From Clostridia bacterium (GTDB lineage Bacteria; Bacillota; Clostridia; TANB77; UBA1234), in contig CAADXZ010000200.1 in assembly GCA_900753135.1 (NCBI GenBank), forward strand, positions 1 through 54,958: DNA of 54,958 nucleotides, written 5' to 3'. This document shows, one piece after another, positions 21,242 to 45,645 of the stretch. Within the stretch, counting starts at the first letter, position 1. Each line of letters opens with the position of its first letter. The notes under the pieces were generated by a model. That model was not told the DNA's origin. It ran no database searches and saw nothing but the letters and a program-made list of their open reading frames with translations. The position numbers and the translations under genes are program-made.

Positions 21242-22453
21242 TTATTTATTTAATATCTGCACTTCTCCACCTTTATTTGAAACTCTTACTAACATTGGAA
21301 CATATATATATCCTTCACTTGAAGACATATTTTCTATATCTTCATCCTCATCATATGTAACGTTTCCAATGTCAAATTTGTAGTACAAATAATCTCCTAT
21401 ATTATATGCATAATCTATCGTTATCATATTCGTATCTTTAACAGGGTTTTCAATTTGACCAACATCTTTTCCTTTATTATATAAATGTATTACTCCATTT
21501 ATGTCTTTTAAATCATAGTTTCTTTGTATATCTGTTTTAATTTCATCATGAGTTTCTTCTATCTTATCATTCTTTATAATGTACATTTTTTCAGTATCAC
21601 CACTCATATTCGCATAAAACCAAGGCGTATCATTATCTTCATTCATGAACATATATATGTTTTGATATTCATTCAAATTAATTTTTTCTTTCTTGCCATC
21701 TTTCATATTAATTTTCAAAACATAGCTTTCTCCATCTATGTCAGTTGCCACACAATATACATAATTTTTTGTTGGAACAATTTGCAATACTTCATCATAT
21801 TTAGAAAGTTCATCACTCAAAGTAACTAATGCAAATTCATTTTTGGTTAATGCTACAATGAGTGTATTATTTTTATGACCAGGTGTTGTGTAATATATAT
21901 AATTATCGTCCTCACTCATTTTTTTCATATTTGCACTTGAAATTTGATTAACGTTATTTATGGCATTAAGAGTTTTACTATAATCAGCACTATATATATC
22001 GTTAGCATACAAGAAGACTACTTTTTTGCCATCAAAATATTGTAATTCACCTTGGCAAAAGAATTTCATATCATTTTTTTCTAAATCATACTGATATGTA
22101 TTATCTGCATAAACTATATATATCATATTGTTATAAAAAAACATATTATGATTGCTTATTGCTGTTTTCTTAAAATCGATAACATCTGTTATGGTTATAT
22201 TCTTATCCTTTGCTGAAATTCTGCTTATATTACTTTGAAAGTCTCCACTTTCATTTGTATATTCGTTTTGGTAATATATCATGCCATTATATTGAACTAT
22301 ATGCGACCAATTATTCAAAATATCATTTGAATAGCTATCATTATCTTTTTTATTATTCTTACTAACTTGACTGCCAAGAACTACAAATATTGCAATTAAA
22401 ATTATAGTTAAAACACTTGCTATAAGCTTAAGTTGTTTTAAATTTAACTTCAT
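21242..22453 (-). CDS. Hypothetical membrane-anchored protein (Tyr/Asn-rich, possibly beta-propeller)
   Basis: ORF track 403 aa, N-terminal TM helix, GAGGAGGGG SD. Confidence 0.65.
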   Translation of the reverse strand: MKLNLKQLKLIASVLTIILIAIFVVLGSQVSKNNKKDNDSYSNDILNNWSHIVQYNGMIYYQNEYTNESGDFQSNISRISAKDKNITITDVIDFKKTAISNHNMFFYNNMIYIVYADNTYQYDLEKNDMKFFCQGELQYFDGKKVVFLYANDIYSADYSKTLNAINNVNQISSANMKKMSEDDNYIYYTTPGHKNNTLIVALTKNEFALVTLSDELSKYDEVLQIVPTKNYVYCVATDIDGESYVLKINMKDGKKEKINLNEYQNIYMFMNEDNDTPWFYANMSGDTEKMYIIKNDKIEETHDEIKTDIQRNYDLKDINGVIHLYNKGKDVGQIENPVKDTNMITIDYAYNIGDYLYYKFDIGNVTYDEDEDIENMSSSEGYIYVPMLVRVSNKGGEVQILNK

Positions 22454-31944: not shown

Positions 31945-32535
31945 TTAAATATACTTTAAAACTTCCCTAGGAGGTAGCCTAGCATCTATTTTCACAATCT
32001 GGACATTGCTTGCTTCAAACAATTGAGTAATACCAATTACTGTTTCTTCAAATTGTTGAAAACGTTTTTCGATTATCTCCGTCGTGTCGTCCTTACGTTT
32101 TACAAGAATAGTATCGCAACAATCACATATTCCAATTCTTTTTGGCTTTTTAAAAGATTTGGAATATACACTCCTACAAGTAGGACAAATCAATCTATCA
32201 GTTGCTCTTTGAATTACTAAATCTTTATCGGCAACAATATAAAATAATTTATCCACCTGTAAATTGTTATTACTTAAAAGTGCCTCTGCTTGTCCAAGAG
32301 TTCTAGGAAAGCCATCAATGATAATATCACTTCTAGAATTAGCAGTAATCGCTTTGTCTATTAATGATATTATTAATTCATCACTTGCCATCGTTCCTGC
32401 TTCGATATCCACTCCTGCATCTTTCAACAACTTACTTGCCGAAATACATTTCATGCCAAGTTTGGTTAACTCTTCAATCCGTGTCCCTTTCCCACTAGCT
32501 GGTGCTCCGATGAAAACAAAAATCTTTCTCTTCAT
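31945..32535 (-). CDS. Divergent adenylate kinase paralogue with Zn lid
   Basis: GAPASGKGT P-loop, DGFPRTLGQAEAL, CPTC...CDCC lid, KRKDD; AAGGAG 8 nt upstream of the ATG at 32535. Confidence 0.75.
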   Translation of the reverse strand: MKRKIFVFIGAPASGKGTRIEELTKLGMKCISASKLLKDAGVDIEAGTMASDELIISLIDKAITANSRSDIIIDGFPRTLGQAEALLSNNNLQVDKLFYIVADKDLVIQRATDRLICPTCRSVYSKSFKKPKRIGICDCCDTILVKRKDDTTEIIEKRFQQFEETVIGITQLFEASNVQIVKIDARLPPREVLKYI

Positions 32536-32571
32536 CTTTCTCACTCCTTATATAATTTTATTTTTAGTATA

Positions 32572-33831
32572 CTAACAATTTTTATGTAAAAAGCAAAAAG
32601 TATCTACTCCATTTATATCTCCATTTAGATAGCATCTATATCTACAGCCACCCCTGCAATGATCATAACTATCACAATTATTGCAAGTTTCATTGCCTTC
32701 AAACTCTCTAAAGTTCTTTAGTATATGACTATTATTCCATATGTCTGTCAATGTGTTTTCCTTTACATTTCCACATATAAATTCATCTGGATAATGAGAA
32801 CATGGTCTAACATTTCCTAACGGATCCACACAAATGCTTTCCTTTCCAGCAAAGCAACCAAAGCCTAATTCTTCTATATATTCATAATCTTCATCACAAT
32901 ATATATTAAGTGGAGCTCTAATTTTTATTAAACCACTATATTTACTTCTTAACCTTTCAATATTTTGTATTGTTTTTATATATTCATCTTGTGATATTAA
33001 AATATTTATTTTATTTGTAATAGCTCTTCCATCTTCTCTAACCGTATTGAACTTTACAGTGTCACACTTATATTTAATTCCTATTCTTATGATATCTTCA
33101 ATTTGATTTATATTATTTTTCATGAGAGTTGTTTTCAAAGAATACTTGCCTTTATAGTACTTCTTTAATAATTCTAAATTATTTGTTACTTTATAAAACG
33201 TTCCGCTCCCTCTTACAAAATCAAAACTTTTTTCATTACCACCGTCAAAACTTATAGTAAGATTGCTTATTTTTAATTCATTAAGTTTGAGAATTACTTT
33301 CTCGTTAAATATCGTACCATTTGTTGTGATAGATACACTTATATTATTTCTATTACATTCTTCAATAAAAAAATATATATCTTCCGAACAAAACGGCTCA
33401 CCACCAGCAATAGAAATCTTCTGTATTCCAAGTTCTTTTATTTGATTTATCAGATTAAATTTTTCTTTTAAAGTCAATTCCAATTTTTTCTGTACTCCAG
33501 ACTCAGTAAAGCAATGCTTACATCTCAAATTACACTTATATGTAATATCATAAAATATTCTAAATGGTGCTGACAGATAATTCTCAGACGCTTTATTATT
33601 AGCATTCTTTATATCAATTTTTACAACACCCAATTTTACTAATTCACGTAACATTTCAAAAATATCGTTTTTATCTAACTCTTGTAATTCTTCAACATTT
33701 TTTTCATATTGGATATCGCTTAGCATTTGTATTAAATTATAAGTTTCTTTATCTATTGCAATGTTTTCTTTGGTATTGTCGTCATATATAATTCCCCCAA
33801 AAAATTCTTTTTTCAATATTAAATTTCCCAT
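32572..33831 (-). CDS. Radical SAM/SPASM maturase-type enzyme with N-terminal RRE(PqqD)-like extension
   Basis: CNLRCKHC; C-terminal CFAGKESICVDPLGNVRPC ... CNNCDSYDHCRGGCRYRC; about 85 aa precede the core. Confidence 0.85.
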   Translation of the reverse strand: MGNLILKKEFFGGIIYDDNTKENIAIDKETYNLIQMLSDIQYEKNVEELQELDKNDIFEMLRELVKLGVVKIDIKNANNKASENYLSAPFRIFYDITYKCNLRCKHCFTESGVQKKLELTLKEKFNLINQIKELGIQKISIAGGEPFCSEDIYFFIEECNRNNISVSITTNGTIFNEKVILKLNELKISNLTISFDGGNEKSFDFVRGSGTFYKVTNNLELLKKYYKGKYSLKTTLMKNNINQIEDIIRIGIKYKCDTVKFNTVREDGRAITNKINILISQDEYIKTIQNIERLRSKYSGLIKIRAPLNIYCDEDYEYIEELGFGCFAGKESICVDPLGNVRPCSHYPDEFICGNVKENTLTDIWNNSHILKNFREFEGNETCNNCDSYDHCRGGCRYRCYLNGDINGVDTFCFLHKNC

Positions 33832-33899
33832 ATATTACTCCTTATTTTAGATAAATCCTATATCTAATACATAATTTATACCTACCTGCTAATTAAATA

Positions 33900-33962
33900 T
33901 TACATGTGTAAATTTTTTAATTTTTTTATATGTTTTTTGTGTACTTTTTTATTTGTTTTCAT
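33900..33962 (-). CDS. Untracked 20-codon ORF MKTNKKVHKKHIKKLKNLHM (candidate precursor peptide)
   Basis: AAAGGAGGAG lies 6 nt upstream of the ATG at 33962 and the TAA stop is at 33900-33902. The ORF sits between the two radical SAM genes. Confidence 0.5.
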   Translation of the reverse strand: MKTNKKVHKKHIKKLKNLHM

Positions 33963-34009
33963 AATCAACTCCTCCTTTCAATCAAAAGTTTATATTAGAT
34001 ATAGTATAA

Positions 34010-34906
34010 TCAATTAATAGTTTTTTTGTCGTATGCTTTATATCTATTTATAGCACACTTCATACAAAATTCGTTTTTATGATCAAACTCTTTTTTTAAT
34101 ATCTTATCTAAACCGCCACTTTTTATATTTCCAAGTAGCAATGCACCTTCTGTAAATGCACAAGGAAATACATCTCCTTTATAATCTATATAAAGAGAAG
34201 TCGTTCCACATAAGCAATTTTGTTTTTGAGTTAAATATTTTTCAACGGGTAATTCTACCTTGCATTTTACTTCTTTCTCTTTACAATACACCAAAATATC
34301 ATCTAGTAATTTCATAAATTCATCAAATGGAATAGGAATATTATTATTTTCTTTCGCTCTTCCAAATAAGTTTGTAGAATTTACCTTCAAGTTCTTAATA
34401 CCAGATTCATCGCAAAAATTAATGATATCAAAAATATCTTCCTTATTATACTTTGATATTGTTGTCCTAACTGAAATTCTATCAATAATTTCTCTATGTC
34501 CAGATAAGGTTTTCAAGTTATTGATTACATATTCTACATTTATCCCTTCTCGCACATTATTTGAATTAATATTTGAAAGTGAATCTAAACTAATTGTTAC
34601 TTTTACATTTTGATTTTCTTGTAAGCATTTAATAATATCATCATTCAAAATTGTTCCATTAGTCGTAATTGATATTTGCATATCCCTGTTATCATTAATA
34701 ATCTCTACAATATCCTTTAAAAAAGGCTCTCCACCACCAATAGAAACTTTATTAATTTTATTTTTTCTTATTTCAATAAACGTTTTTAGAATTTCATCGT
34801 TAGAAAGTTCTGCTTTATCCTTTGTACTACTAGAATTTGTAAAACAATATTTACAATTTGCATTGCACAATTTAGTTATATCAAAAAAAATCTTACTTAT
34901 CATCAT
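34010..34906 (-). CDS. Radical SAM enzyme with partial SPASM/twitch C-terminus
   Basis: CNANCKYC; CLCGTTSLYIDYKGDVFPC ... CMKC; its start overlaps the upstream gene by 14 nt. Confidence 0.85.
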   Translation of the reverse strand: MMISKIFFDITKLCNANCKYCFTNSSSTKDKAELSNDEILKTFIEIRKNKINKVSIGGGEPFLKDIVEIINDNRDMQISITTNGTILNDDIIKCLQENQNVKVTISLDSLSNINSNNVREGINVEYVINNLKTLSGHREIIDRISVRTTISKYNKEDIFDIINFCDESGIKNLKVNSTNLFGRAKENNNIPIPFDEFMKLLDDILVYCKEKEVKCKVELPVEKYLTQKQNCLCGTTSLYIDYKGDVFPCAFTEGALLLGNIKSGGLDKILKKEFDHKNEFCMKCAINRYKAYDKKTIN

Positions 34907-35384
34907 ACTCACCTAATTCATTTAAAATTTCAAATTCAACTCCAATAGTTTCTTGTAAGGCTGTACATTTAGCATTAAAAAGTGAATAATTATTTTTATT
35001 ATTATTTCCAAAACAAGTATTCATAATAACAATCGCAGTTTCAGCTTTGTGTTTTCCAATTCCGGGGAATGAGCACAATCTTCGTTCTATTGTTTCATTG
35101 TTTCCTTTAAAAATATCTTTTACATCGATATAATTTTCTAATACATTCACAACAGAACTATATAAATATATACTCATGCTTTTAGGGAATCTGTGTAAAA
35201 CGGGCTTTACCAGCATCGCACTTTCGATTTTTTCATAAGTTAATAAATTATATGATGTTTCGAAATTCTCTATCAAATTTAATCTATTCATTAATTCTCT
35301 TGTGTTTAACAAAACTTGCATTGCTTTCTGAGACTGATTTAATATTGTAGCCCATAATAAATATAATGCTTGTCTATTATTCAT
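34893..35384 (-). CDS. Short helix-hairpin-helix protein (endonuclease III-like HhH only)
   Basis: FPGIGKHKAETAIVIMNTCFG; GGAG 8 nt upstream of the ATG at 35384; ATGAATAA overlap with the MazG-like stop. Confidence 0.65.
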   Translation of the reverse strand: MNNRQALYLLWATILNQSQKAMQVLLNTRELMNRLNLIENFETSYNLLTYEKIESAMLVKPVLHRFPKSMSIYLYSSVVNVLENYIDVKDIFKGNNETIERRLCSFPGIGKHKAETAIVIMNTCFGNNNKNNYSLFNAKCTALQETIGVEFEILNELGEYDDK

Positions 35385-35736
35385 TATTTTTGCTCCATTT
35401 TCTTTCAATATTTTCTTTCTCTTTGCTTAACACTGCAGAATACAAATCAATATTTAATACATTGCACAATTCTGTAAGCACAATAAAAACATCTGCAACT
35501 TCCTCTTCAATTTCTGTATAATGGCTAATTTTATCTTTATCGATAGTGCCACCCGGTAATTTTTTTCGAATAGCTTTTGCTAATTCACCCGTTTCCTCCA
35601 ATATAAGTAACATTTCATCTTGTATACTTTTGTTTGAAAAACCTCTAAGTTCAATAACATTTTTAATATACTTTTGTAACTCTGGTAAAGTTGTTCTATC
35701 GCTTAATTGTGAGAATAAACTTTTTTGATTATCCAT
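35377..35736 (-). CDS. MazG-like nucleoside triphosphate pyrophosphohydrolase (single domain)
   Basis: EETGELAKAIRK and EEVADVFIVL metal-binding helices; 119 aa; AAAGGAG SD. Confidence 0.8.
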   Translation of the reverse strand: MDNQKSLFSQLSDRTTLPELQKYIKNVIELRGFSNKSIQDEMLLILEETGELAKAIRKKLPGGTIDKDKISHYTEIEEEVADVFIVLTELCNVLNIDLYSAVLSKEKENIERKWSKNNE

Positions 35737-35750
35737 ACAAGTTCTCCTTT

Positions 35751-35948
35751 CTAATAACTTTTAAGATTTTTATTAATAAAATAGGATGCCTTCACACTTG
35801 CATAATTGTGTGAAAACATCCTTAAAAAAGTCAATATTTTTGCAATATATAGAGAGAAAATGAAGGAAAAAAGAGTGAAAGAAACCCTAGTTAAAACATA
35901 TTCGCTAACTACAATATTTGATAATAATTCAATAATTATATCTTTCAT
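35751..35948 (-). CDS. Possible 65-aa single-TM protein or leader ORF (MKDIIIELLSNIVV...)
   Basis: GGGAGGAAG lies 6 nt upstream of the ATG at 35948, but the ORF reads through the terminator hairpin. Confidence 0.35.
   Translation of the reverse strand: MKDIIIELLSNIVVSEYVLTRVSFTLFSFIFSLYIAKILTFLRMFSHNYASVKASYFINKNLKSY
35770..35821 (-). terminator. Leader terminator/attenuator 35 nt upstream of the MazG-like start
   Basis: Minus-strand RNA reads GGAUGUUUUCACAC, a 10-nt loop, GUGUGAAGGCAUCC (14 bp including 2 G-U), then UAUUUUAUU. The G-U pairs would be A-C mismatches on the other strand. Confidence 0.65.
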
Positions 35949-36068
35949 TCTAAACTTCCTCCCAATACTTACTATAGATAAAATAACTCTCATCATTGCA
36001 AGATTTTATATTACTACCTTCAACTGTTACTTTTGATGTTTTGCTTCAGAAGTAATTCTATGTGCAGG

Positions 36069-36097
36069 AATATATCATGAATATTAAATATTGTCAA
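36069..36097 (-). promoter_or_regulatory. Near-consensus sigma-A-type promoter of the operon
   Basis: Minus strand reads TTGACA (36092-36097), 17 nt, TATATT (36069-36074). Confidence 0.6.
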
Positions 36098-36167
36098 CAT
36101 TTTTTTCATACTCCTATTATCAAAACCCAGGCTGTATTAAATTAAATATATTTCTTGTTATACAATA

Positions 36168-36212
36168 AATAGTGAACCAACAAGATTTAAATGTCCTGCC
36201 GGTCCACTATTT
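36168..36212 (-). terminator. Putative ppdK terminator
   Basis: About 11-bp stem AATAGTGAACC / GGTCCACTATT (one mismatch, large loop), then TATTTATTG. Confidence 0.45.
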
Positions 36213-36239
36213 TAATTAGACAAATATTCTCTATGTTAT

Positions 36240-38870
36240 TTATTTTTGTCTTGGATATTTAATTTGAGCTTGAGCAGCTGCAAGTCTAGCTACTGGAACT
36301 CTAAATGGTGAGCAAGATACATAAGTTAAACCAGCTCTGTGACAGAACTCAACAGAAGAAGGATCTCCGCCGTGTTCTCCACAAATACCTAATTTAATAT
36401 CAGGTCTTGTCTTTTTACCAAGTTCAACAGCCATTTTTACTAATTTACCTACACCAACTTGGTCTAGTTTAGCAAATGGGTCGTTTTCATATATCTTCTT
36501 ATCATAGTATGCACCTAAGAATTTACCAGCATCATCTCTTGAGAAACCAAATGTCATTTGTGTTAAGTCATTTGTTCCGAATGAGAAGAATTCAGCTTCT
36601 TTAGCGATTTCATCAGCTGTTAATGCAGCTCTTGGTATCTCTATCATTGTACCAACTTTATACTTCATATCAACACCAGCTTCAGCAATTATCTTATCAG
36701 CTGTTGCACATACTACGTCTTTAACATATTTTAATTCTTTAACTTCACCAACTAATGGAATCATTATTTCAGGTGTAATCATCTTACCAATCTTCTTAGA
36801 AGCATTGATAGCTGCTTTGATAACAGCTTCTGTTTGCATCTCAGCGATTTCTGGGAATGTAACAGCTAGACGGCATCCTCTGTGTCCCATCATTGGGTTG
36901 AATTCGTGAAGACTAGCAATGATTGCTTTAATTTCTTCAACTGTCTTGCCTTGTGTTTTGGCAAGTAATTCAATATCTTTTTCCTCTGTTGGAACGAACT
37001 CGTGTAGAGGAGGATCTAGGAATCTAATTGTTACTTCGTATCCGTCCATTGTTTCAAATAATTGTTCGAAGTCACTTTGTTGCATTGGCTCTAATTTAGC
37101 AAGAGCTGCTTTTCTTTGTTCAACTGTATCAGAACAAATCATTTCTCTGATTGCAGCTATTCTGTCGCCTTCAAAGAACATATGCTCTGTACGGCAAAGA
37201 CCAATACCTTGTGCTCCTAATTCTTTTGCTTTAGCAGCATCTCTTGGAGTATCAGCATTTGTTCTAACTTCTAGAACTCTGTATTTATCTGCCCAGTTCA
37301 TTATTCTTTCGAAGTCTCCGCCTATTGTAGCATCAACTGTTGGAATGATACCAGCATAGATATTACCTGTAGAACCATCAAGTGAGATTTCATCTCCTTC
37401 ATGATATGTTTTACCAGCAAGAGTAAATTTCTTATTTTCTTCATCCATAACGATATCGCCACATCCAGATACGCAGCATTTACCCATACCACGAGCAACA
37501 ACAGCTGCGTGAGATGTTCTACCACCACGAACTGTTAAGATACCTTGAGCAGCTTTCATACCTTCGATATCTTCTGGAGATGTTTCAAGACGAACCAAAA
37601 CAACTTTTTCTTTAGCTCCTCTTACTTTAGCATCTTCAGCTGTGAATACGATTTTACCACAAGCAGCTCCAGGAGAAGCACCTAATGCTTTACCAATTGG
37701 AGTAGCTTCTTTTAATGCTTTAGGATCAAATTGTGGGTGAAGTAATGTATCTAAGTTACGAGGATCAATCATAGCAACTGCTTCTTCCTCTGTTCTCATT
37801 CCTTCATCAACTAAGTCACAAGCAATCTTTAATGAAGCTTGAGCTGTTCTCTTACCGTTACGTGTTTGTAACATATATAATTTACCGTGTTCAACAGTAA
37901 ACTCCATATCTTGCATATCTCTGTAATGAGATTCAAGTTTTTGACAAACATCTTTGAATTGTTCAAATGCTTCTGGGAATTTGTCAGCCATTTCTGTAAT
38001 CTTCATTGGTGTACGAACACCAGCAACAACGTCTTCACCTTGTGCATTTGTTAAGAATTCACCATATAATCCTTTTTCACCAGTAGCTGGGTCACGAGTA
38101 AATGCAACACCAGTACCACAGTCATCTCCCATGTTACCAAATGCCATCATTTGAACGTTAACAGCTGTTCCCCAAGAATAAGGAATATCATTATCTCTTC
38201 TGTATACGTTTGCTCTAGGGTTGTCCCAAGATCTAAATACAGCTTTGATAGCGCCCATTAATTGTTCTGTTGGATCTGTTGGGAATTCAGAACCAATCTT
38301 TTCTTTGTACTCAGCTTTGAATTCTTCAGCTAATTCTTTTAAATCATCAGCTGTAAGTTCAACGTCTTGAGTAACTCCTCTATCAGCTTTCATTTTATCT
38401 ATAAGTTGTTCGAAGTATTTCTTACCAACTTCCATAACTACGTCTGAATACATTTGAATAAATCTTCTGTAACAATCCCAAGCCCAACGTGGGTTACCTG
38501 ATTTTGCTGCAATTGATTCAACAACTTGTTCATTCAAACCTAAGTTAAGAATTGTATCCATCATTCCTGGCATTGATGCTCTTGCACCACTACGTACAGA
38601 AACTAAAAGTGGATTTTCAACATCTCCGAACTTTTTACCTGTAATCTCTTCCATCTTTTTGATGTATTCAAAAATTTGAGCTTGAATTTCATCATTGATT
38701 TTTCTTCCATCTTCGTAATATTGAGTACATGCTTCTGTAGAGATCGTAAAACCCTGTGGAACTGGTAAACCTAACTTTGTCATTTCTGCTAAGTTAGCTC
38801 CTTTTCCTCCAAGAAGTTCTCTCATTGAAGCGTCACCTTCACTAAAAAGATAAACATACTTTTTACTCAT
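36240..38870 (-). CDS. ppdK: Pyruvate, phosphate dikinase
   Basis: 876 aa, GGRTSHAAVVARGMG phospho-His region, CGEHGGDP, PEP-utilising domains. Confidence 0.95.
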   Translation of the reverse strand: MSKKYVYLFSEGDASMRELLGGKGANLAEMTKLGLPVPQGFTISTEACTQYYEDGRKINDEIQAQIFEYIKKMEEITGKKFGDVENPLLVSVRSGARASMPGMMDTILNLGLNEQVVESIAAKSGNPRWAWDCYRRFIQMYSDVVMEVGKKYFEQLIDKMKADRGVTQDVELTADDLKELAEEFKAEYKEKIGSEFPTDPTEQLMGAIKAVFRSWDNPRANVYRRDNDIPYSWGTAVNVQMMAFGNMGDDCGTGVAFTRDPATGEKGLYGEFLTNAQGEDVVAGVRTPMKITEMADKFPEAFEQFKDVCQKLESHYRDMQDMEFTVEHGKLYMLQTRNGKRTAQASLKIACDLVDEGMRTEEEAVAMIDPRNLDTLLHPQFDPKALKEATPIGKALGASPGAACGKIVFTAEDAKVRGAKEKVVLVRLETSPEDIEGMKAAQGILTVRGGRTSHAAVVARGMGKCCVSGCGDIVMDEENKKFTLAGKTYHEGDEISLDGSTGNIYAGIIPTVDATIGGDFERIMNWADKYRVLEVRTNADTPRDAAKAKELGAQGIGLCRTEHMFFEGDRIAAIREMICSDTVEQRKAALAKLEPMQQSDFEQLFETMDGYEVTIRFLDPPLHEFVPTEEKDIELLAKTQGKTVEEIKAIIASLHEFNPMMGHRGCRLAVTFPEIAEMQTEAVIKAAINASKKIGKMITPEIMIPLVGEVKELKYVKDVVCATADKIIAEAGVDMKYKVGTMIEIPRAALTADEIAKEAEFFSFGTNDLTQMTFGFSRDDAGKFLGAYYDKKIYENDPFAKLDQVGVGKLVKMAVELGKKTRPDIKLGICGEHGGDPSSVEFCHRAGLTYVSCSPFRVPVARLAAAQAQIKYPRQK

Positions 38871-38930
38871 TTTATTTCCTCCTTGTTAAATTAATTATTG
38901 TGATGTAAATTTTGTCTATAACACTAGATT

Positions 38931-38959
38931 AATATATACCAGTTTGTCCAAAAAATCAA
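38931..38959 (-). promoter_or_regulatory. Candidate ppdK promoter
   Basis: Minus strand reads TTGATT, 17 nt, TATATT, about 60 nt upstream of the ATG. Confidence 0.4.
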
Positions 38960-39004
38960 CTGTTTTTTGTCCTTTTACTTCTCTATAACATCCTATAAAT
39001 TATG

Positions 39005-39033
39005 TTGACTCTGCATCAAAGATATGTTATCTT
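39005..39033 (+). promoter_or_regulatory. Candidate promoter of the GC-rich element, divergent from ppdK
   Basis: TTGACT (39005-39010), 17 nt including TGT, then TATCTT (39028-39033). Confidence 0.4.
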
Positions 39034-39090
39034 ATTCTTGTAAGAATCTTCCACATCAGACCAACTTTTACATAAAGGAGGTAAAGCTGT

Positions 39091-39252
39091 ATGCCGTGGT
39101 TGCTGCTGATATGTGATTACTCTTTTTGGGAGCTACTGAGGGAATTCCGAAGTATACGCTGCTACGAATCACATTACCAGTGTGAGCTACACAATTACTA
39201 CCGGCGGTCTAGAGACTGCAATGGTGACATACGGCCTAGGTATTGGATTTAA
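39091..39252 (+). other. GC-rich structured element containing a 53-codon ORF (MPWLLLICDYSFWELLREFRSIRCYESHYQCELHNYYRRSRDCNGDIRPRYWI); either an sRNA or a small-protein gene
   Basis: AAAGGAGG lies 9 nt upstream of the ATG at 39091. Codons are rare for this genome (CGG x3, CTG x3, CCG, CGC). Long-range helices: 39089-39103/39218-39232, 39104-39108/39178-39182 and 39111-39118/39167-39174. Confidence 0.4.
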
Positions 39253-39261
39253 CTCAACAAC

Positions 39262-39296
39262 AAAAAAGCTGTTCCTAATTGGAGCAGCTTTTTATT
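39262..39296. terminator. Bidirectional terminator shared by the GC-rich element (+) and the 852-aa gene (-)
   Basis: AAAAGCTGTTCC-TAATT-GGAGCAGCTTTT, with A6 upstream and T-rich sequence downstream. Confidence 0.8.
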
Positions 39297-39329
39297 GTAT
39301 TATAATTGTCATCTTGCTTAATTATGTTA

Positions 39330-41888
39330 CTACGTCGCATCTGTTCCTAATGCTTTTTTACCACATATTGAGCATTTAGTACTTCCATATGGTACCTTAT
39401 GTACACCAGCGTTATTTGTTGCACTACATCTTATACATTGTTTCCAATGTGAAGTCATATTACCAGACCACTTAGAAGACCATTTGTGGCCAAGAGCTGG
39501 ACCGCTAGTTGCACCACATCTAGAGCATTTTTTAGGAGCTGTACATGTCGCAGATCTATAACTATGACCAAGTGCAGTTCCACTGGTAGCACCACACCTT
39601 CTGCACTTTGCCGCTCTTGTACATGTTGCAGAACTAAAACTATGTCCTAGTGCGCCTCCGTTTGTTGCTCCACATCTTGTACATGTTGCTGGCGTTGTAC
39701 ATGTCGCAGCACTATAATTATGTCCTAGTGCCCCTCCTGTTGTTACCCCACATCTTGTACATGTTGCTGGCGTCGTACACGTTGCTGCACTGTAGTTGTG
39801 TCCTAATGCACCTCCTGTTGTTGCACCACACTTTGTACATGTTTTTGGGGTTGTACATGTCGCATCTTTCCAGGTATGTTCACATATTGTTATAGCACTC
39901 TTGTTATTTGTTGAATCAGTGTTATCTACAAATTTTTTTGAATTGTAATTTGCTTTTGTAGCAGAAACCACAACATAAATATATTTTCCTATCATATTCT
40001 TTGGTATAATGTATGTACTAGATGTTGCACCACTTATTGCCGTGCCTCCGCTTGTTGCGTTTTTTGTGCTACTGTACCATTGATATTTTAGTGTGCAACC
40101 TGTTGGAACAATTCCTGATGTATCTGCAGTCAATGTCTTTAAATATACATTGTCTCCAGTTATCTTTATACTTCCACTCATATCTGCGTTTTGTATTCTA
40201 AAACCTACAGTTGTGTTTTGTAATTCATAATTTTCAACCTTTGCTTGTCCTCCTGTTACACTTGATATACTTGCCGAAGATGTATAATTACCAGTATTTA
40301 CCGCTGTTGTCCTTACTAAATTTAATGTTTCACCAGTCACGCCAGAATCTGCAGTAGCAGTTGGTGCCTGTTCACTTCCGTTATATGTGAATAATCTTGT
40401 ATTACCCCAAACAGTAGTTATTTTCTTCTTATCTATTGACCATGTATAACTTATTTCATCATCAGTTCCATTTGCCCATTCATACCTATCTTTGTTAAGT
40501 ATTCTTACAATTGCTGTCTTTGTTCCAACATCTATCATTGTATTATCAGTTATGCCTAAAATTGCACTATCAAAATTATTCAATTGCAATGTTTGTACTT
40601 GACCGTTATATGTATATGTTGGTACAGCAATAGTTGGTTTTGTTAATTTTATCTTTGGTCTAAATATTGCATACAACACCAAATCGTTTTCTGTTCCGAT
40701 ATTATATATTGTCAAACCTTCTGTAGCTGTAATTTTTGTATTCCAGCCTAAAAACTCATAATGTCGTCTACTTGCTTTAGGAGTCAAATCAACAAATGAG
40801 TTACAACCTATTTGTACTGTTGTTTCCGCTATATTGACACTTTCACCGCCATTTGCATCATACTTATATTTTACATTTAGCATAACCCTTATGCTCTTTG
40901 AGGCATTTCCTATTTTTCCAAAACTATTTTTTACCCACACGGTATATACGCCATTTTCTGTCACATTGAATTTTGCCGTATATTTATTAGCAGGTTCTGT
41001 AATATCTACCCAGCTATCTAAAGTTGGTACAACATCTTCACCAACAGTTACAGCATATGAAACAATTTTTGAATTTTTATCCTGTGCAATTACTGTAACA
41101 TCAGCAGTTCCTTGTTTATAATTACATACATATGAAATTATTTTTGGAGAATCTATATCATTGTCATTATCATTCGTACCATTTTCTATTCTTACAACCT
41201 TAGTCGTCGAACTACCGCCTTCTTCATTTGCTATTATTGTGCAACTTTCTTTGCTTTTTACAACATATTCAAAATTTTTTCCATCTGTTGTTGTCGCTTT
41301 TTGACCATCTACCAATACACTTAATATATTTCCACCATATGCTGGTGTAACTTCTATATGTAAATTACCGTCTTTAGTTGATATAACTTGTATTGTTGGC
41401 CCATTTAATCTGGTACTGGTATTATTTTCATCACTTCCATATCCATCAAGATACTTACCATTCTTTGCATAAAATACTTTTAATGAAGCATCATACACAT
41501 AGACATCACTTTCATTAAACGTTATAGTATCACCAGATGATAACTTAGAATAATCCTGACCACTTTTTAATTTCTCATAATCAATTACCGAAAGATCAAC
41601 AACATAACCAGTTGATTCATCCGTATCATAACTTACGAAATTATCTGGTGGATTTTCGACCTTTACCTTTATGAATCCTTTGTTTAACGTATCTTCATCA
41701 ATACCAGACTTGGCATTTATCGAACGAACTACAAGCATTCCTTTCTTCACTTCAGACAACTCTTGCATCATCTTACCATTAGAAGCCTCATCTATTGTAT
41801 TCATTGAATGTAAAGATATTGATGCTAATATGATTATTACTATTATTGTTATAACTAATGATATTAGTGAAACACCCTTTTTATTCAT
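39330..41888 (-). CDS. 852-aa surface protein: pilin-like N-terminus, Listeria-Bacteroides-type repeat, Ig-like region, C-terminal Cys/His repeats
   Basis: MNKKGVSLISLVITIIVIIIL; YDANGGES...YEFLGWN; five 26-aa H-x6-C-x5-C-x2-C units. Confidence 0.85.
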   Translation of the reverse strand: MNKKGVSLISLVITIIVIIILASISLHSMNTIDEASNGKMMQELSEVKKGMLVVRSINAKSGIDEDTLNKGFIKVKVENPPDNFVSYDTDESTGYVVDLSVIDYEKLKSGQDYSKLSSGDTITFNESDVYVYDASLKVFYAKNGKYLDGYGSDENNTSTRLNGPTIQVISTKDGNLHIEVTPAYGGNILSVLVDGQKATTTDGKNFEYVVKSKESCTIIANEEGGSSTTKVVRIENGTNDNDNDIDSPKIISYVCNYKQGTADVTVIAQDKNSKIVSYAVTVGEDVVPTLDSWVDITEPANKYTAKFNVTENGVYTVWVKNSFGKIGNASKSIRVMLNVKYKYDANGGESVNIAETTVQIGCNSFVDLTPKASRRHYEFLGWNTKITATEGLTIYNIGTENDLVLYAIFRPKIKLTKPTIAVPTYTYNGQVQTLQLNNFDSAILGITDNTMIDVGTKTAIVRILNKDRYEWANGTDDEISYTWSIDKKKITTVWGNTRLFTYNGSEQAPTATADSGVTGETLNLVRTTAVNTGNYTSSASISSVTGGQAKVENYELQNTTVGFRIQNADMSGSIKITGDNVYLKTLTADTSGIVPTGCTLKYQWYSSTKNATSGGTAISGATSSTYIIPKNMIGKYIYVVVSATKANYNSKKFVDNTDSTNNKSAITICEHTWKDATCTTPKTCTKCGATTGGALGHNYSAATCTTPATCTRCGVTTGGALGHNYSAATCTTPATCTRCGATNGGALGHSFSSATCTRAAKCRRCGATSGTALGHSYRSATCTAPKKCSRCGATSGPALGHKWSSKWSGNMTSHWKQCIRCSATNNAGVHKVPYGSTKCSICGKKALGTDAT
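39333..39884 (-). repeat. In-frame 78-nt tandem repeats encoding ALGH(N/S)(Y/F)S(A/S)ATCTxxxxCxRCGxTxGx units
   Basis: Five units plus a degenerate sixth. Units 2 and 3 are nearly identical in protein but differ at synonymous sites. Confidence 0.85.
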
Positions 41889-41972: not shown

Positions 41973-42034
41973 TTATGTTACATTTTTGTTACTAAAATAT
42001 TTCAATAACGTTAATCTATTAATATTTTTTGAAA

Positions 42035-43045
42035 CTATTTCAAGGCCTTTTCAAACACTGGCAATATACCTAAATCATTTGGACCTATTTTCTCTGCTAC
42101 TTGATATATATCATGTCCAGGAAATTGATTTCCTTCTATAAGAACAGGACCATTTACACTCATGGCAACATCCCAGCCGACGTATCTCACATGCGTACTT
42201 CTTTTTGCAGCAGTTTCCACAAGCTTCTTTGCCTCACTCCAATATGGAATTTGAAAACCTTTTATAACAGTTCCTGTTAATGGATGTTTTTCAAAAAGTT
42301 CTCCTTTTTTATTTACAGCTTCTTCAATGATTATTCCTGTTTCAGTATCTACTTTTGCAGTCATTCCACCACTATTAAAGTTATCAACAACCTTTCCGTT
42401 TCCAATTCTAACAAACGTTGCAAGTATTGTCACTTCGCCTCTTTCGTTCATAACTGATACCATTCTTGTTGTGTTTACAGAGCTTGAGTTTAATTTACTC
42501 ATTTCTTCGCATTGTATAACTGGTTCTTCAAGAAGTTCCAATTTATTTTCTATCAAATGACTATACACTTTCTCATAATCATTATTCCATTCTTGTATAT
42601 TGATCTTCTCAATGTTTTTGCCACATTGTCCATCATTTGGCTTAGCGAAAAATATAGGATGCTTCTTTATAAATTCGACAGTTTCGTTTTTCTTTGAACT
42701 TATAGGATATATGTATTCTCTTTTCAAGAAATCCCTAAACATGTCATTAAATTCGTTTTTGTTATTAAACAAATGCCAATAATCTTTTTCATTTAATTTC
42801 TTTACGAACTTATTATTTATTCCACGAGTTAACATTGTTTTTCTTTGCTTCGAAGTCAATTTATAAAAGCCAATTACATCATAATCTACATAACCAGCCC
42901 CATATCTAATTCCACACCATACCATATCGCAAAAAATCGAAAACTTTGATTTTGTACACTTTTCTTTAACGACATCTATTCTTTCAAACATTGATTTATA
43001 ATTCATAGTACATAGTCTTTTTATCAAATAATTTATACTAGGCAT
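42035..43045 (-). CDS. Sugar-transfer-associated ATP-grasp family protein
   Basis: Length and C-terminal VGWDVAMSVNGPVLIEGNQFPG are typical of the ATPgrasp_ST family. Confidence 0.65.
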   Translation of the reverse strand: MPSINYLIKRLCTMNYKSMFERIDVVKEKCTKSKFSIFCDMVWCGIRYGAGYVDYDVIGFYKLTSKQRKTMLTRGINNKFVKKLNEKDYWHLFNNKNEFNDMFRDFLKREYIYPISSKKNETVEFIKKHPIFFAKPNDGQCGKNIEKINIQEWNNDYEKVYSHLIENKLELLEEPVIQCEEMSKLNSSSVNTTRMVSVMNERGEVTILATFVRIGNGKVVDNFNSGGMTAKVDTETGIIIEEAVNKKGELFEKHPLTGTVIKGFQIPYWSEAKKLVETAAKRSTHVRYVGWDVAMSVNGPVLIEGNQFPGHDIYQVAEKIGPNDLGILPVFEKALK

Positions 43046-43183
43046 ACTTTTCCTCTTTTCTCATGTGTTATGTTGCATAACACCTCATCATAGTATAAAA
43101 AAGCTACGATGAGGTGCATAAAAGCATTAAATATTCTATTTTAAAACAGAAGATTATAAGTAAATATCAAGTCCATATTGAAT

Positions 43184-44572
43184 CTAAAATTTTAACTTAT
43201 CTTCAACGAATTTTTCTAAATCATCAATGTTGATTCTAACTTGTTCCATAGTATCTCTGTCTCTAACTGTTACACAGTTATCTTCAATGGTTTCAAAATC
43301 AACAGTTACACAGAATGGAGTACCAATTTCGTCTTCTCTTCTATATCTCTTACCTATACTACCAGCTTCATCATATTCACAATTAAATCTCTTAGAAAGC
43401 TTTTCATACAAAGCAGTTGCTGGTTCAGATAACTTTTTAGATAACGGAAGTACGGCAACCTTAACAGGTGCAAGAACCGGATGAAGTCTTAAAACAGTTC
43501 TAACATCTCCTTCGCCAACTTCTTCCTCATCATAAGCATCACAAATAGCAGTTAAGAAGATTCTTTCAACACCAACAGAAGGCTCAACACAGTAAGGAAC
43601 ATATTTTTCGTTTGTTTCTGGATCCAAATATGTTAAGTCAGCCTTTGAAGCTTCCATATGCCTTGACAAATCATAATCTGTTCTGTCTGCAATACCCCAA
43701 AGCTCACCCCAACCAAATGGGAATAAGTATTCAATATCTGTTGTACCCTTGCTATAGAAAGAAAGTTCTTCTTTTGAATGTTCTCTCATTCTCAAATTCT
43801 CTTCTTTAATACCTATACTCATAAGAAAATTCTTGCAGTAATCTTTCCAGTAAGCGTACCACTCTAAGTCCGTACCTGGTTTGCAGAAAAATTCAAGTTC
43901 CATTTGTTCAAATTCTCTTATTCTAAAAATAAAGTTACCAGGTGTGATTTCATTTCTAAAAGAACGACCTATTTGACAAACACCCATTGGCATTTTGCTT
44001 CTTGTTGTTCTTTGAATATTCTTAAAGTTAACAAACATTGATTGTGCTGTTTCAGGTCTTAAATATACTTCAGATTTTGCATCTTCTGTAACACCCATAA
44101 AAGTCTTAAACATTAAATTGAATTTTCTAATATCAGTAAAGTCTGACTTACCGCAATTAGGACAAGGAATATTATGCTCCTTGATATATGTAACTAATTG
44201 TTCATTTGACCAACCATCCAAGCCTGTTACTTGATTACCTTGTTTAAATGACCATTCCTCAATCAATTTATCTGCTCTGTGCCTTGTTTTGCATGATCTA
44301 CAGTCTATTAAAGGATCACTAAAACCACCAACATGTCCTGTTGTCACCCATACTTGTGGGTTCATTATTATTGAAGCATCTATACCAACATTATATTTGC
44401 TTTCTTTAACAAATTTCTGCCACCATGCTTCTCTTATATTTCTCTTTAATTCTGCTCCTAATGGACCAAAATCCCAAGAATTTGCAAGTCCTCCATATAT
44501 TTCAGATCCTGGATAAACAAATCCTCTATTTTTGCATAAGTTAACTATCTTGTCCATTGTTTTTTCTACCAT
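43184..44572 (-). CDS. glyQS: Glycine--tRNA ligase (homodimeric class II)
   Basis: [25 protein letters not shown], class II motifs, 462 aa. Confidence 0.95.
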
Positions 44573-44614
44573 AAAAAATTCCTCCTCATTCTTTTTAGGT
44601 AATCATATATCAAT

Positions 44615-44663
44615 AAGCTTTTTCTTTAAAGTTTTGAATGAAAGAAAAAACTCAAAATACATT
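44615..44663. repeat. Dispersed structured intergenic repeat, copy 3 (partial, inverted)
   Basis: AAGTTTTGAATGAAAGAAAAAACTCAAAATACAT aligns with copy 2 (AAGTTTTCGACTAAAAGAAAAAAACTCTCACATA). Confidence 0.5.
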
Positions 44664-44771
44664 AGCAATGATATACATAATCTTAAATCTTGTGATAATA
44701 TATCATAATTGCAATGTGTTTTCAAGTAAGTGAAAAACATTTGTTGGTTATATCTTAGTAAAAGATAAAAA

Positions 44772-45509
44772 TTACAATTCTACAATATACTCTTTTTCCA
44801 GTTTTTCAAATGTATATATCTTTGCAACCAAGTTCAACTCATCTATAGATTCTTGTGGTATGTCAAATGAAAATATCTTCTTAGGCTCGGAAGACAATAT
44901 GTACACCAAACTTGTATATGTTGTATATGAAATTTTTATTGCTCCTTTATCTTGTGTTTTGCAAGTTGCACACTTTATTCCATTATCTTTTATGCTAAAG
45001 TATATATCATCTCCTATATCAATAGCATTCTTTCCACACTCAGTACAAGCTTTTAATCTGGGCACATAGCCAAGTATTGCAAGCAATCTTATTCTAAATA
45101 TAGAAAACACAAGATCAACATTCTTATCGGTTTCTGATAAAACATATAAAGTATTTAAAAGTAGTTGTAATCTTTGAAAAGATAATTCTTCCTCTTGGCA
45201 AACGTCATTAATAATCTTTGCTATCGCTGATGCATACATTAACTTATCAATATCCATTCTTAAATTATAAAAAACATTTATAGGCTCTGCCGAACTTAGA
45301 TTATACATATCGCAATTATCTTCAAACAATACCATATCACTATAGCAAAGAAACTCTGTACTAGCTAAAAAGGTGCCTTTTGTCTTTTTAGCACCTTTAC
45401 AAAAAACTTTTATTTTACCCTTTTCTGCTGTTAATACAGTTAATACTTTGTCATTGTCTGATGAATTAGCAATTCTTATTACAATTCCTTTAGTTTTTAT
45501 TATCCCCAT
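44772..45509 (-). CDS. recO: DNA repair protein RecO
   Basis: OB-fold N-terminus (KTKGIVIRI...), CxxC...CxxC zinc motif, synteny era-yqzL-recO. Confidence 0.9.
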   Translation of the reverse strand: MGIIKTKGIVIRIANSSDNDKVLTVLTAEKGKIKVFCKGAKKTKGTFLASTEFLCYSDMVLFEDNCDMYNLSSAEPINVFYNLRMDIDKLMYASAIAKIINDVCQEEELSFQRLQLLLNTLYVLSETDKNVDLVFSIFRIRLLAILGYVPRLKACTECGKNAIDIGDDIYFSIKDNGIKCATCKTQDKGAIKISYTTYTSLVYILSSEPKKIFSFDIPQESIDELNLVAKIYTFEKLEKEYIVEL

Positions 45510-45645
45510 CAATATCACCTAACACATTGCAATCTTTGCCATCTAAGTTGTTTTTTTCTGTTCCACTTTCAATATTTCGCATAATCATAAATGCATCTAC
45601 GTTTCCAGTATTTTTAAATAGTTCCCATGCAAAATCTTTACTCAT
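45490..45645 (-). CDS. yqzL: YqzL-family small protein (51 aa; not in the ORF track)
   Basis: AAAGGAGGAAGG SD; MSKDFAWELFKNTGNVDAFMIMRNIE...; conserved position between era and recO; overlaps the recO start by 20 nt. Confidence 0.8.
   Translation of the reverse strand: MSKDFAWELFKNTGNVDAFMIMRNIESGTEKNNLDGKDCNVLGDIDGDNKN

Follow-up and report, generated by a model that had tools for sequence, protein, structure and literature searches.

This locus raises the question of whether a short GC-rich unit set in AT-rich intergenic DNA is a protein gene, a structured RNA, both at once, or the remnant of another gene. The window, i.e. the whole stretch of 54,958 nt that was analysed, derives from an uncultured, spore-forming gut Firmicute of ~31% GC whose closest relatives belong to the Clostridia, and it represents ordinary chromosome, with era, recO, glyQS, ppdK, murD, pfk, a PBP gene, uvrC and yqfD. 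The 460-nt gap between the start of ppdK and the stop of a gene for an 852-aa pilin-like protein contains a unit on the plus strand with a GC content of 42-46%, versus 23-26% in the flanking intergenic DNA, as an earlier note on this DNA had remarked. The unit is very probably a monocistronic, unannotated small protein gene, and we interpret this gene as an independently transcribed, lineage-restricted orphan under purifying selection at the protein level. Because a synonymous excess and in-frame indels stand against the loss of the proposed RNA helices, selection preserves the reading frame and the expression signals, and not the RNA fold. The features of the locus are as follows:

36240-38870, minus strand: ppdK (pyruvate phosphate dikinase), with PPDK domains
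38994-39026, plus strand: promoter core, comprising the -35 hexamer and the spacer as far as the TG
39005-39033, plus strand: predicted SigA-type (sigma-70) promoter, near-consensus, from a promoter scan
39005-39010, plus strand: -35 hexamer TTGACT, separated from the -10 hexamer by a 17-nt spacer
39028-39033, plus strand: -10 hexamer TATCTT, with TG immediately 5' (TG-extended -10)
39074-39081, plus strand: strong Shine-Dalgarno site AAAGGAGG, read from the sequence
39091-39252, plus strand: small protein ORF of 53 codons and TAA (ATG at 39091, TAA at 39250-39252)
39091-39252, plus strand: predicted product of the small gene, MPWLLLICDYSFWELLREFRSIRCYESHYQCELHNYYRRSRDCNGDIRPRYWI (6.9 kDa, 21% aromatic residues, 8 Arg)
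39263-39293, no strand assigned: predicted intrinsic terminator hairpin with a 13-bp stem and a 5-nt loop, from a terminator scan
39330-41888, minus strand: gene of the 852-aa pilin-like protein, convergent with the small gene

This layout agrees with that of the earlier note, in which a TTGACT-17-TATCTT promoter, a ribosome-binding site AAAGGAGG placed 9 nt before the ATG, a 53-codon ORF starting at 39091 and a bidirectional terminator had been described: the promoter scan returned the same hexamers and spacing, the ribosome-binding site lies as placed, the ORF listing and translation gave the same frame, and the stem at 39263-39293 is preceded by an A-run and followed by a T-run. A housekeeping sigma factor would transcribe the unit from a start near 39040, which would leave a leader of ~50 nt, and translation would begin at the sole in-frame ATG (39091), because in-frame TAA stops sit just upstream. 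The transcript would end at the hairpin common to the convergent gene, which could terminate both the small gene on the plus strand and the 852-aa gene on the minus strand. The unit stands alone between promoter and terminator, and no gene follows it.

Since 80 ppdK loci of GTDB species representatives (PPDK identity 76-85%) were found to lack the element by blastn, nhmmer and six-frame tblastn, relatives were sampled as metagenome contigs fetched via PPDK proteins of graded identity. One contig (L001) carries an identical copy of the window locus, and another (L087; PPDK 97%) has the same arrangement, including the pilin-like gene, with 94% nucleotide identity over window positions 36249-40064; the window and L087 represent lineage A. 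Lineage B comprises seven contigs (L088-L093 and L101; PPDK 98-99%), in which the ATP-grasp gene is followed by a gap of ~520 nt and then by ppdK, the pilin-like gene being absent. The comparison covers only two lineages, with four distinct sequences. Seven substitutions separate the ORF of the window from that of L087, every one of them synonymous (S = 32.3 and N = 126.7 sites); under site proportions such an outcome has a probability of about 1.4e-5, which rises only to ~2e-4 on the assumption that 30% of mutations are synonymous. The orthologous ORF of lineage B occupies the same site, flanked by the ATP-grasp gene and ppdK, and has 57 codons (55 in L091 and L092). Its ATG and TAA are at positions equivalent to those of lineage A, the two lengths are 12 nt apart, and in the protein-guided alignment each indel is a whole codon. 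Non-synonymous divergence between the lineages (pN 0.26) is well below synonymous divergence, which is saturated (pS 0.78), and the same tendency is seen for L088 versus L090 (pN 0.021, pS 0.136). Comparison of relatives by blastn and tblastn, together with a test for codon-like substitution, had been suggested as a check on the unit, and its outcome, a synonymous excess and a frame kept across lineages, favours the small protein among the candidates listed in the earlier note.

Within lineage B we counted 4-5 synonymous changes, four non-synonymous changes and one nonsense change, all of the non-synonymous ones being confined to the C-terminal tail. The nonsense change, found in L091 and L092 (loci ~3615-3625, minus strand), turns the penultimate codon from TGG into TAG and shortens the product from 57 to 55 residues. 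Because this change removes them, the last two residues of the lineage B product seem dispensable.

The expression signals are conserved along with the frame. In alignment A2, which contains eight sequences from the two lineages, 30 of the 33 columns of the promoter core (38994-39026) are identical in all sequences; these near-invariant columns (124-156) are bordered by columns that are only ~40-50% alike (99-123 and 157-200). The aligned lineage B promoter consists of TTGACT, a 17-nt spacer and TACTAT or TATTAT, and it also has the TG. The Shine-Dalgarno site AAAGGAGG is unchanged in all eight aligned sequences, preceding the ATG by 9 nt (lineage A) or 7 nt (lineage B), and outside this site the aligned leader is poorly conserved between the lineages. 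At the position of the terminator, a long hairpin is likewise formed in lineage B, from a different sequence (GAGGCAGAAAATTT...AAATTTTCTGCCTC).

The small protein has diverged far more than the proteins encoded around it. Between lineages A and B it is 58% identical in a global alignment (52% by tblastn), versus 84-99% for the flanking proteins: 98.9% for PPDK, 98.3% for GlyRS, 98.3% for the MazG-like protein, 91.1% for the ATP-grasp protein and 84.4% for RecO. Because its divergence far outpaces that of its neighbours and purifying selection nevertheless holds, we propose, with low confidence, that the product may be a lineage-specific factor. The divergence along the locus is itself a mosaic: the window and lineage B share 96% nucleotide identity over 35373-39141 (MazG-like gene, ppdK and promoter region) and only 83% over 42033-45520 (ATP-grasp gene, glyQS and recO). 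The junction of the two segments suggests a recombination boundary at the small gene (38968 / 39141).

The distribution of the gene is narrow. Sister lineages with a PPDK identity of 91-95% (L082-L086, L094 and L095) lack the ORF at the locus and carry other content, or nothing, at its position. Two of them have an unrelated ORF of 133-140 aa where the small gene sits (L082, 4362-4784; L094, 3387-3788), without a Pfam match, and the ATP-grasp/ppdK gap may therefore be a hotspot of gene turnover. Searching the 53-aa product against 5.8 billion protein clusters returned no relative, and its own sequence was absent as well, which indicates that no annotation pipeline has called the ORF. A second, word-indexed protein search with both alleles and with the two-allele alignment found no homologue. 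In an exhaustive HMMER search of 1.84 billion representatives, the sole match was P0121 (E = 9.7e-5), which we judged spurious, given that it is a repeat-made sequence of 221 aa in which one 25-residue match is counted twice, and that lineage B fits the matched stretch less well by eye. Pfam, NCBIfam, PHROGs and PADLOC contain no family for either allele at E-values up to 10, and the best match among PDB sequences has E = 5.3. Peptide patterns and a DNA pattern (WELLR...HYxCEL) gave four chance matches only in JGI metagenomes; no relative was found in viral contigs, and one tblastn search each against phages (53-aa allele) and plasmids (57-aa allele) returned nothing. Independent family support is lacking because no gene caller has called the ORF and no relative is present in the protein libraries. 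As far as these tools reach, the gene appears confined to two closely related lineages.

The three nested helices on which the structural claim of the earlier note was based exist exactly as described, and they are no better than chance. Helix 39089-39103/39218-39232 has 13 of 15 pairs (three of them G-U), helix 39104-39108/39178-39182 has five of five (two G-U), and helix 39111-39118/39167-39174 has eight of eight; when this sequence was shuffled 100 times, 68 of the shuffles contained a helix as good as 13 of 15 pairs or better. Plus-strand folding of the 261-nt unit gave an MFE z-score of -3.5, and the ORF alone reaches only -1.2 (mononucleotide shuffle) and -0.5 (codon-order shuffle), so that the value for the whole unit owes much to the terminator and the leader. 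In lineage B, the same helices fall to 5-6 of 15, three of five and four of eight pairs; overall they are 62-70% paired, and they are broken in all six lineage B sequences examined. The lineage B ORF folds better than its shuffles on its own (z -3.1 and -2.6), and the whole lineage B unit reaches -6.0. A fold common to the two lineages did not emerge: RNAalifold reached a consensus of no more than -21.6 kcal/mol, to which the covariation term contributed -0.48 kcal/mol, and the two lineages have a structure conservation index (SCI) of 0.22, versus 0.19 +/- 0.07 for column-shuffled alignments. Rfam returned no match at the gathering score over the whole window, which agrees with the earlier note in that no known ncRNA family could be assigned. 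In E-value mode, 38880-39340 gave noise only, with sub-threshold matches driven by the terminator; the best of these, Thr_leader (21.6 bits versus a threshold of 55), is carried by it.

The codon usage of the ORF departs strongly from that of the host, and the list of rare codons given in the earlier note (CGG x3, CTG x3, CCG, CGC and AGG) was, if anything, an understatement. The ORF contains three CGG codons, two of them in tandem, versus none among the 12,964 codons of 30 large window genes, and three CTG codons, versus 0.5 per 1000 in the same genes; it also uses CCG, CGC and two AGG codons. Its GC3 of 0.547 compares with 0.194 +/- 0.061 in 1,154 windows of 53 codons drawn from the 30 genes, among which the maximum is 0.49. 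The highly expressed ppdK contains no CGG, CTG or AGG and has a GC3 of 0.198. Window-wide, CTG, CGC, CGA and CCC each occur at no more than 0.5 per 1000 in the 30 large genes, and no tRNA gene lies within the window. With three CGG and three CTG codons, the ORF should be translated poorly. GC3 lies between 0.54 and 0.60 in both lineages at saturated synonymous divergence, and CGG codons are kept in both, the tandem CGG-CGG in lineage A. This alien usage points to a foreign origin or to additional selection on the mRNA. A foreign origin would fit the composition; persistence of the usage in two synonymously saturated lineages is not easily explained by it.

The product is predicted to be a soluble protein rich in aromatic residues (21-26% across the two alleles) and arginine, without a signal peptide, and its pI is 7.7 in lineage A versus 9.6 in lineage B. 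The predicted sequence includes the stretches CYESHYQCELHNYYR, MPWLLLICDYSFWELLR and DCNGDIRPR. In the global alignment, the lineage A protein reads MPWL-LLICDYSFWELLR---EFRSIRCY-ESHYQCELHNYYRRSRDCNGDIRPRYWI and the lineage B protein MSWFSILVHDYYFWELLRNLGNFQNPRHYFDSHYLCELNSYY-RSRSNRRNYRPRYWL. The two share a skeleton of M-x-W (W3), DY-x-FWELLR, SHY-x-CEL-xx-YYR and R-P-[RK]-Y-W-[IL], including a Trp two residues from the C-terminus. One of the four Cys residues, Cys31, is common to the orthologues, and for this reason the description as a Cys-rich protein, proposed in the earlier note, was dropped as a property of the family. The product would work inside the cell, where it might bind a macromolecular partner via two short helices and a basic tail; we regard this function as a doubtful possibility, and the description of the two helices is itself weak because the single-sequence AlphaFold2 model is uninformative (pLDDT 45, unreliable).

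The main alternatives at the RNA level differ in how much they ask of the ORF. If the unit were a purely non-coding structured sRNA with an incidental ORF, its GC-rich composition in AT-rich surroundings, the z-score of -3.5 on the plus strand and the nested helices would all be accommodated; this reading is very unlikely and is in effect refuted by the comparative data, given that all seven substitutions prove synonymous when read in one frame, that the ORF is kept across lineages with in-frame indels and matching start and stop, and that the helices are at chance level, broken in lineage B and without an Rfam match. The proposal of a novel structured sRNA was consequently not upheld, also in view of an SCI at the shuffled level. 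A transcript that encodes the small protein and has an added role is improbable rather than implausible. Such a transcript might be a dual-function riboregulator selected at the RNA level, or a translation-coupled sensor that uses codons the host never uses, slow and stall-prone translation reporting scarce arginine tRNA. Dual-function sRNAs that encode small proteins include SR1/SR1P of B. subtilis, RNAIII/hld of S. aureus and SgrS/SgrT of E. coli. The small gene resembles them as a short, stand-alone promoter-terminator transcript with a small ORF and no downstream gene, GC-richer and more foldable than its surroundings. It differs in that no conserved pairing or seed region is detectable between its two lineages, and in that only the coding function is supported. 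What speaks for an added role is the GC3 of 0.54-0.60 in both lineages, versus 0.19 in the host, despite saturated synonymous divergence: since selection at the protein level alone leaves this persistent GC3 unexplained, a constraint at the RNA level may operate. The z-scores of lineage B (-3.1 for the ORF and -6.0 for the whole unit) point in the same direction. On the other side, no helix is conserved across lineages, the SCI equals the shuffled value, the ORF of the window does not exceed its shuffles in structure (z of -1.2 and -0.5), a target did not emerge, the leader is poorly conserved outside the Shine-Dalgarno site, and a foreign origin accounts equally well for the high GC3. If slow translation or selection on the RNA did apply, the fast-diverging peptide would be a lineage-specific signal or effector.

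Two further readings assign the unit to a known genetic or biosynthetic system. The earlier note had recognised, by eye, a sparse framework (W-L-x3-C-x-Y ... E-(L/F)-R ... R-P) shared with the lectin-like C-termini of the pilin-like paralogues, and had accordingly considered a relic, or a copy resembling the template repeat of a diversity-generating retroelement (DGR), of their variable segment. The likeness to a DGR template repeat extends to a unit of ~150 nt with unusual composition near genes whose lectin-like C-termini vary among paralogues, and an unusually high GC3 is common to the ORF and to the C-terminal segment of paralogue 53388-54914. The framework did not survive formal alignment: BLASTP of the product against the C-termini of paralogues 399-1910 and 53388-54914 gave E = 1.1 and 23, nucleotide local alignments to 399-700 and 53388-53700 on both strands gave z-scores of 0.7 to 2.4, none of this similarity being significant, and alignments to both C-termini on both strands with adenine as a wildcard fell within the shuffles. 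Moreover, a blastn search with the element gave no match elsewhere in the window, the lineage B orthologue lacks C8 and G45 of the framework, no reverse transcriptase domain was detected in the 40 window ORFs screened with Pfam, and lineage B has the ORF without an adjacent pilin-like gene. We give this reading hardly any credence, and it is already refuted on its defining feature, namely identity between template and variable repeat with adenine-specific mismatches: the small gene shares no nucleotide identity with any of the candidate variable regions, also when such mismatches are allowed, and has no reverse transcriptase nearby. Somewhat less remote, and still quite unlikely, is a modified or exported pro-peptide, such as a graspetide-like substrate of the ATP-grasp ligase, a pherotype-type signal or a leaderless bacteriocin. 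The lineage B ORF adjoins, and is convergent with, the ATPgrasp_ST gene, it combines quick divergence with a conserved motif skeleton as pheromone and bacteriocin precursors do, and the Trp near the C-terminus is conserved. Nevertheless, sister species without the ORF still carry the ATP-grasp gene together with glyQS, the product lacks a core rich in Thr/Lys and Asp/Glu, the adjacent genes include none for a transporter, immunity, AgrB or a ComQ-like protein, and L087 and lineage B retain the ORF but do not have the radical SAM/SPASM genes that lie 4 kb from it in the window. Precursors of the AgrD, ComX, SCIFF/ranthipeptide, graspetide and leaderless-bacteriocin types, as well as type I toxins, were each rejected, as adjacent partner genes are missing and the features do not fit.

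The small protein gene, which we retain as the preferred reading, belongs to a kind that is already documented, namely small ORF proteins of the gut and other microbiomes that annotation has missed (Sberro et al., bioRxiv 10.1101/494179; GMSC, PMC11364881). Like these, it is shorter than 100 codons, was missed by gene callers, and was recognised by a conserved frame, a synonymous excess and a ribosome-binding site in gut metagenome assemblies. Unlike them, it has no family in 5.8 billion clusters or 1.84 billion representatives, and its codon usage is far beyond the range of its host. It is thus an orphan within a well-known kind and not a new type of system. The find is modest and does not open a long-standing question; it adds a well-supported, hitherto uncalled small protein gene to an uncultured gut Firmicute, and it illustrates that what looks like a structured, GC-rich island amid AT-rich intergenic sequence can turn out to be a coding sORF and not an sRNA. 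The combination of fast protein divergence, strict conservation within a lineage and foreign codon usage makes it a test case, which can be used to probe the origins of orphan small genes and the regulatory roles of sORFs laden with rare codons.

The surroundings of the small gene, whose neighbours are ppdK, the pilin-like gene, the ATP-grasp gene and glyQS, yielded further observations. The 852-aa pilin-like gene (39330-41888, minus strand) is a lineage-specific insertion present in the window, L001 and L087; in L088-L093 and L101 it is missing and the ATP-grasp gene faces the small gene directly. Its C-terminus contains five tandem 78-nt repeats (39487-39876), which encode Cys-rich units of 26 residues of the type CTTPATCTRCGATTGGALGHxYSxAT. 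Between the MazG-like and CBS genes, the window and L001 have a block (31945-35408, minus strand) made up of a 171-aa ORF, radical SAM/SPASM genes of 300 and 419 aa, and a gene resembling that of adenylate kinase. L087 and lineage B lack this block, which has the appearance of a strain-variable island. Two ORFs of 409 and 403 aa (48599-49828 and 21242-22453, minus strand) lie in a housekeeping context and matched no Pfam family at the thresholds used.

Among the paralogues, the C-terminal ~55 codons of gene 53388-54914 (53460-53630, minus strand; GWLASSCVYMYSDNEYAYFELRHAYSGAADGYILCGSTANTYAPAYGLRPVVS) have a GC content of 46-54% and a GC3 of ~0.45, versus a gene background of 0.19; no other 53-codon window of the 30 reference genes has a GC3 as high. 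In paralogue 399-1910, the corresponding C-terminal segment has an ordinary AT-rich composition. The composition of 53460-53630 recalls a DGR variable region, and neither a template-like copy nor a reverse transcriptase was found in the window. Just downstream of paralogue 399-1910, a 67-nt direct repeat occurs in two copies 100 nt apart (31-97 and 131-197; 76% identity), each of which bears a perfect hairpin, GGAACACGCTGTGTTCC.
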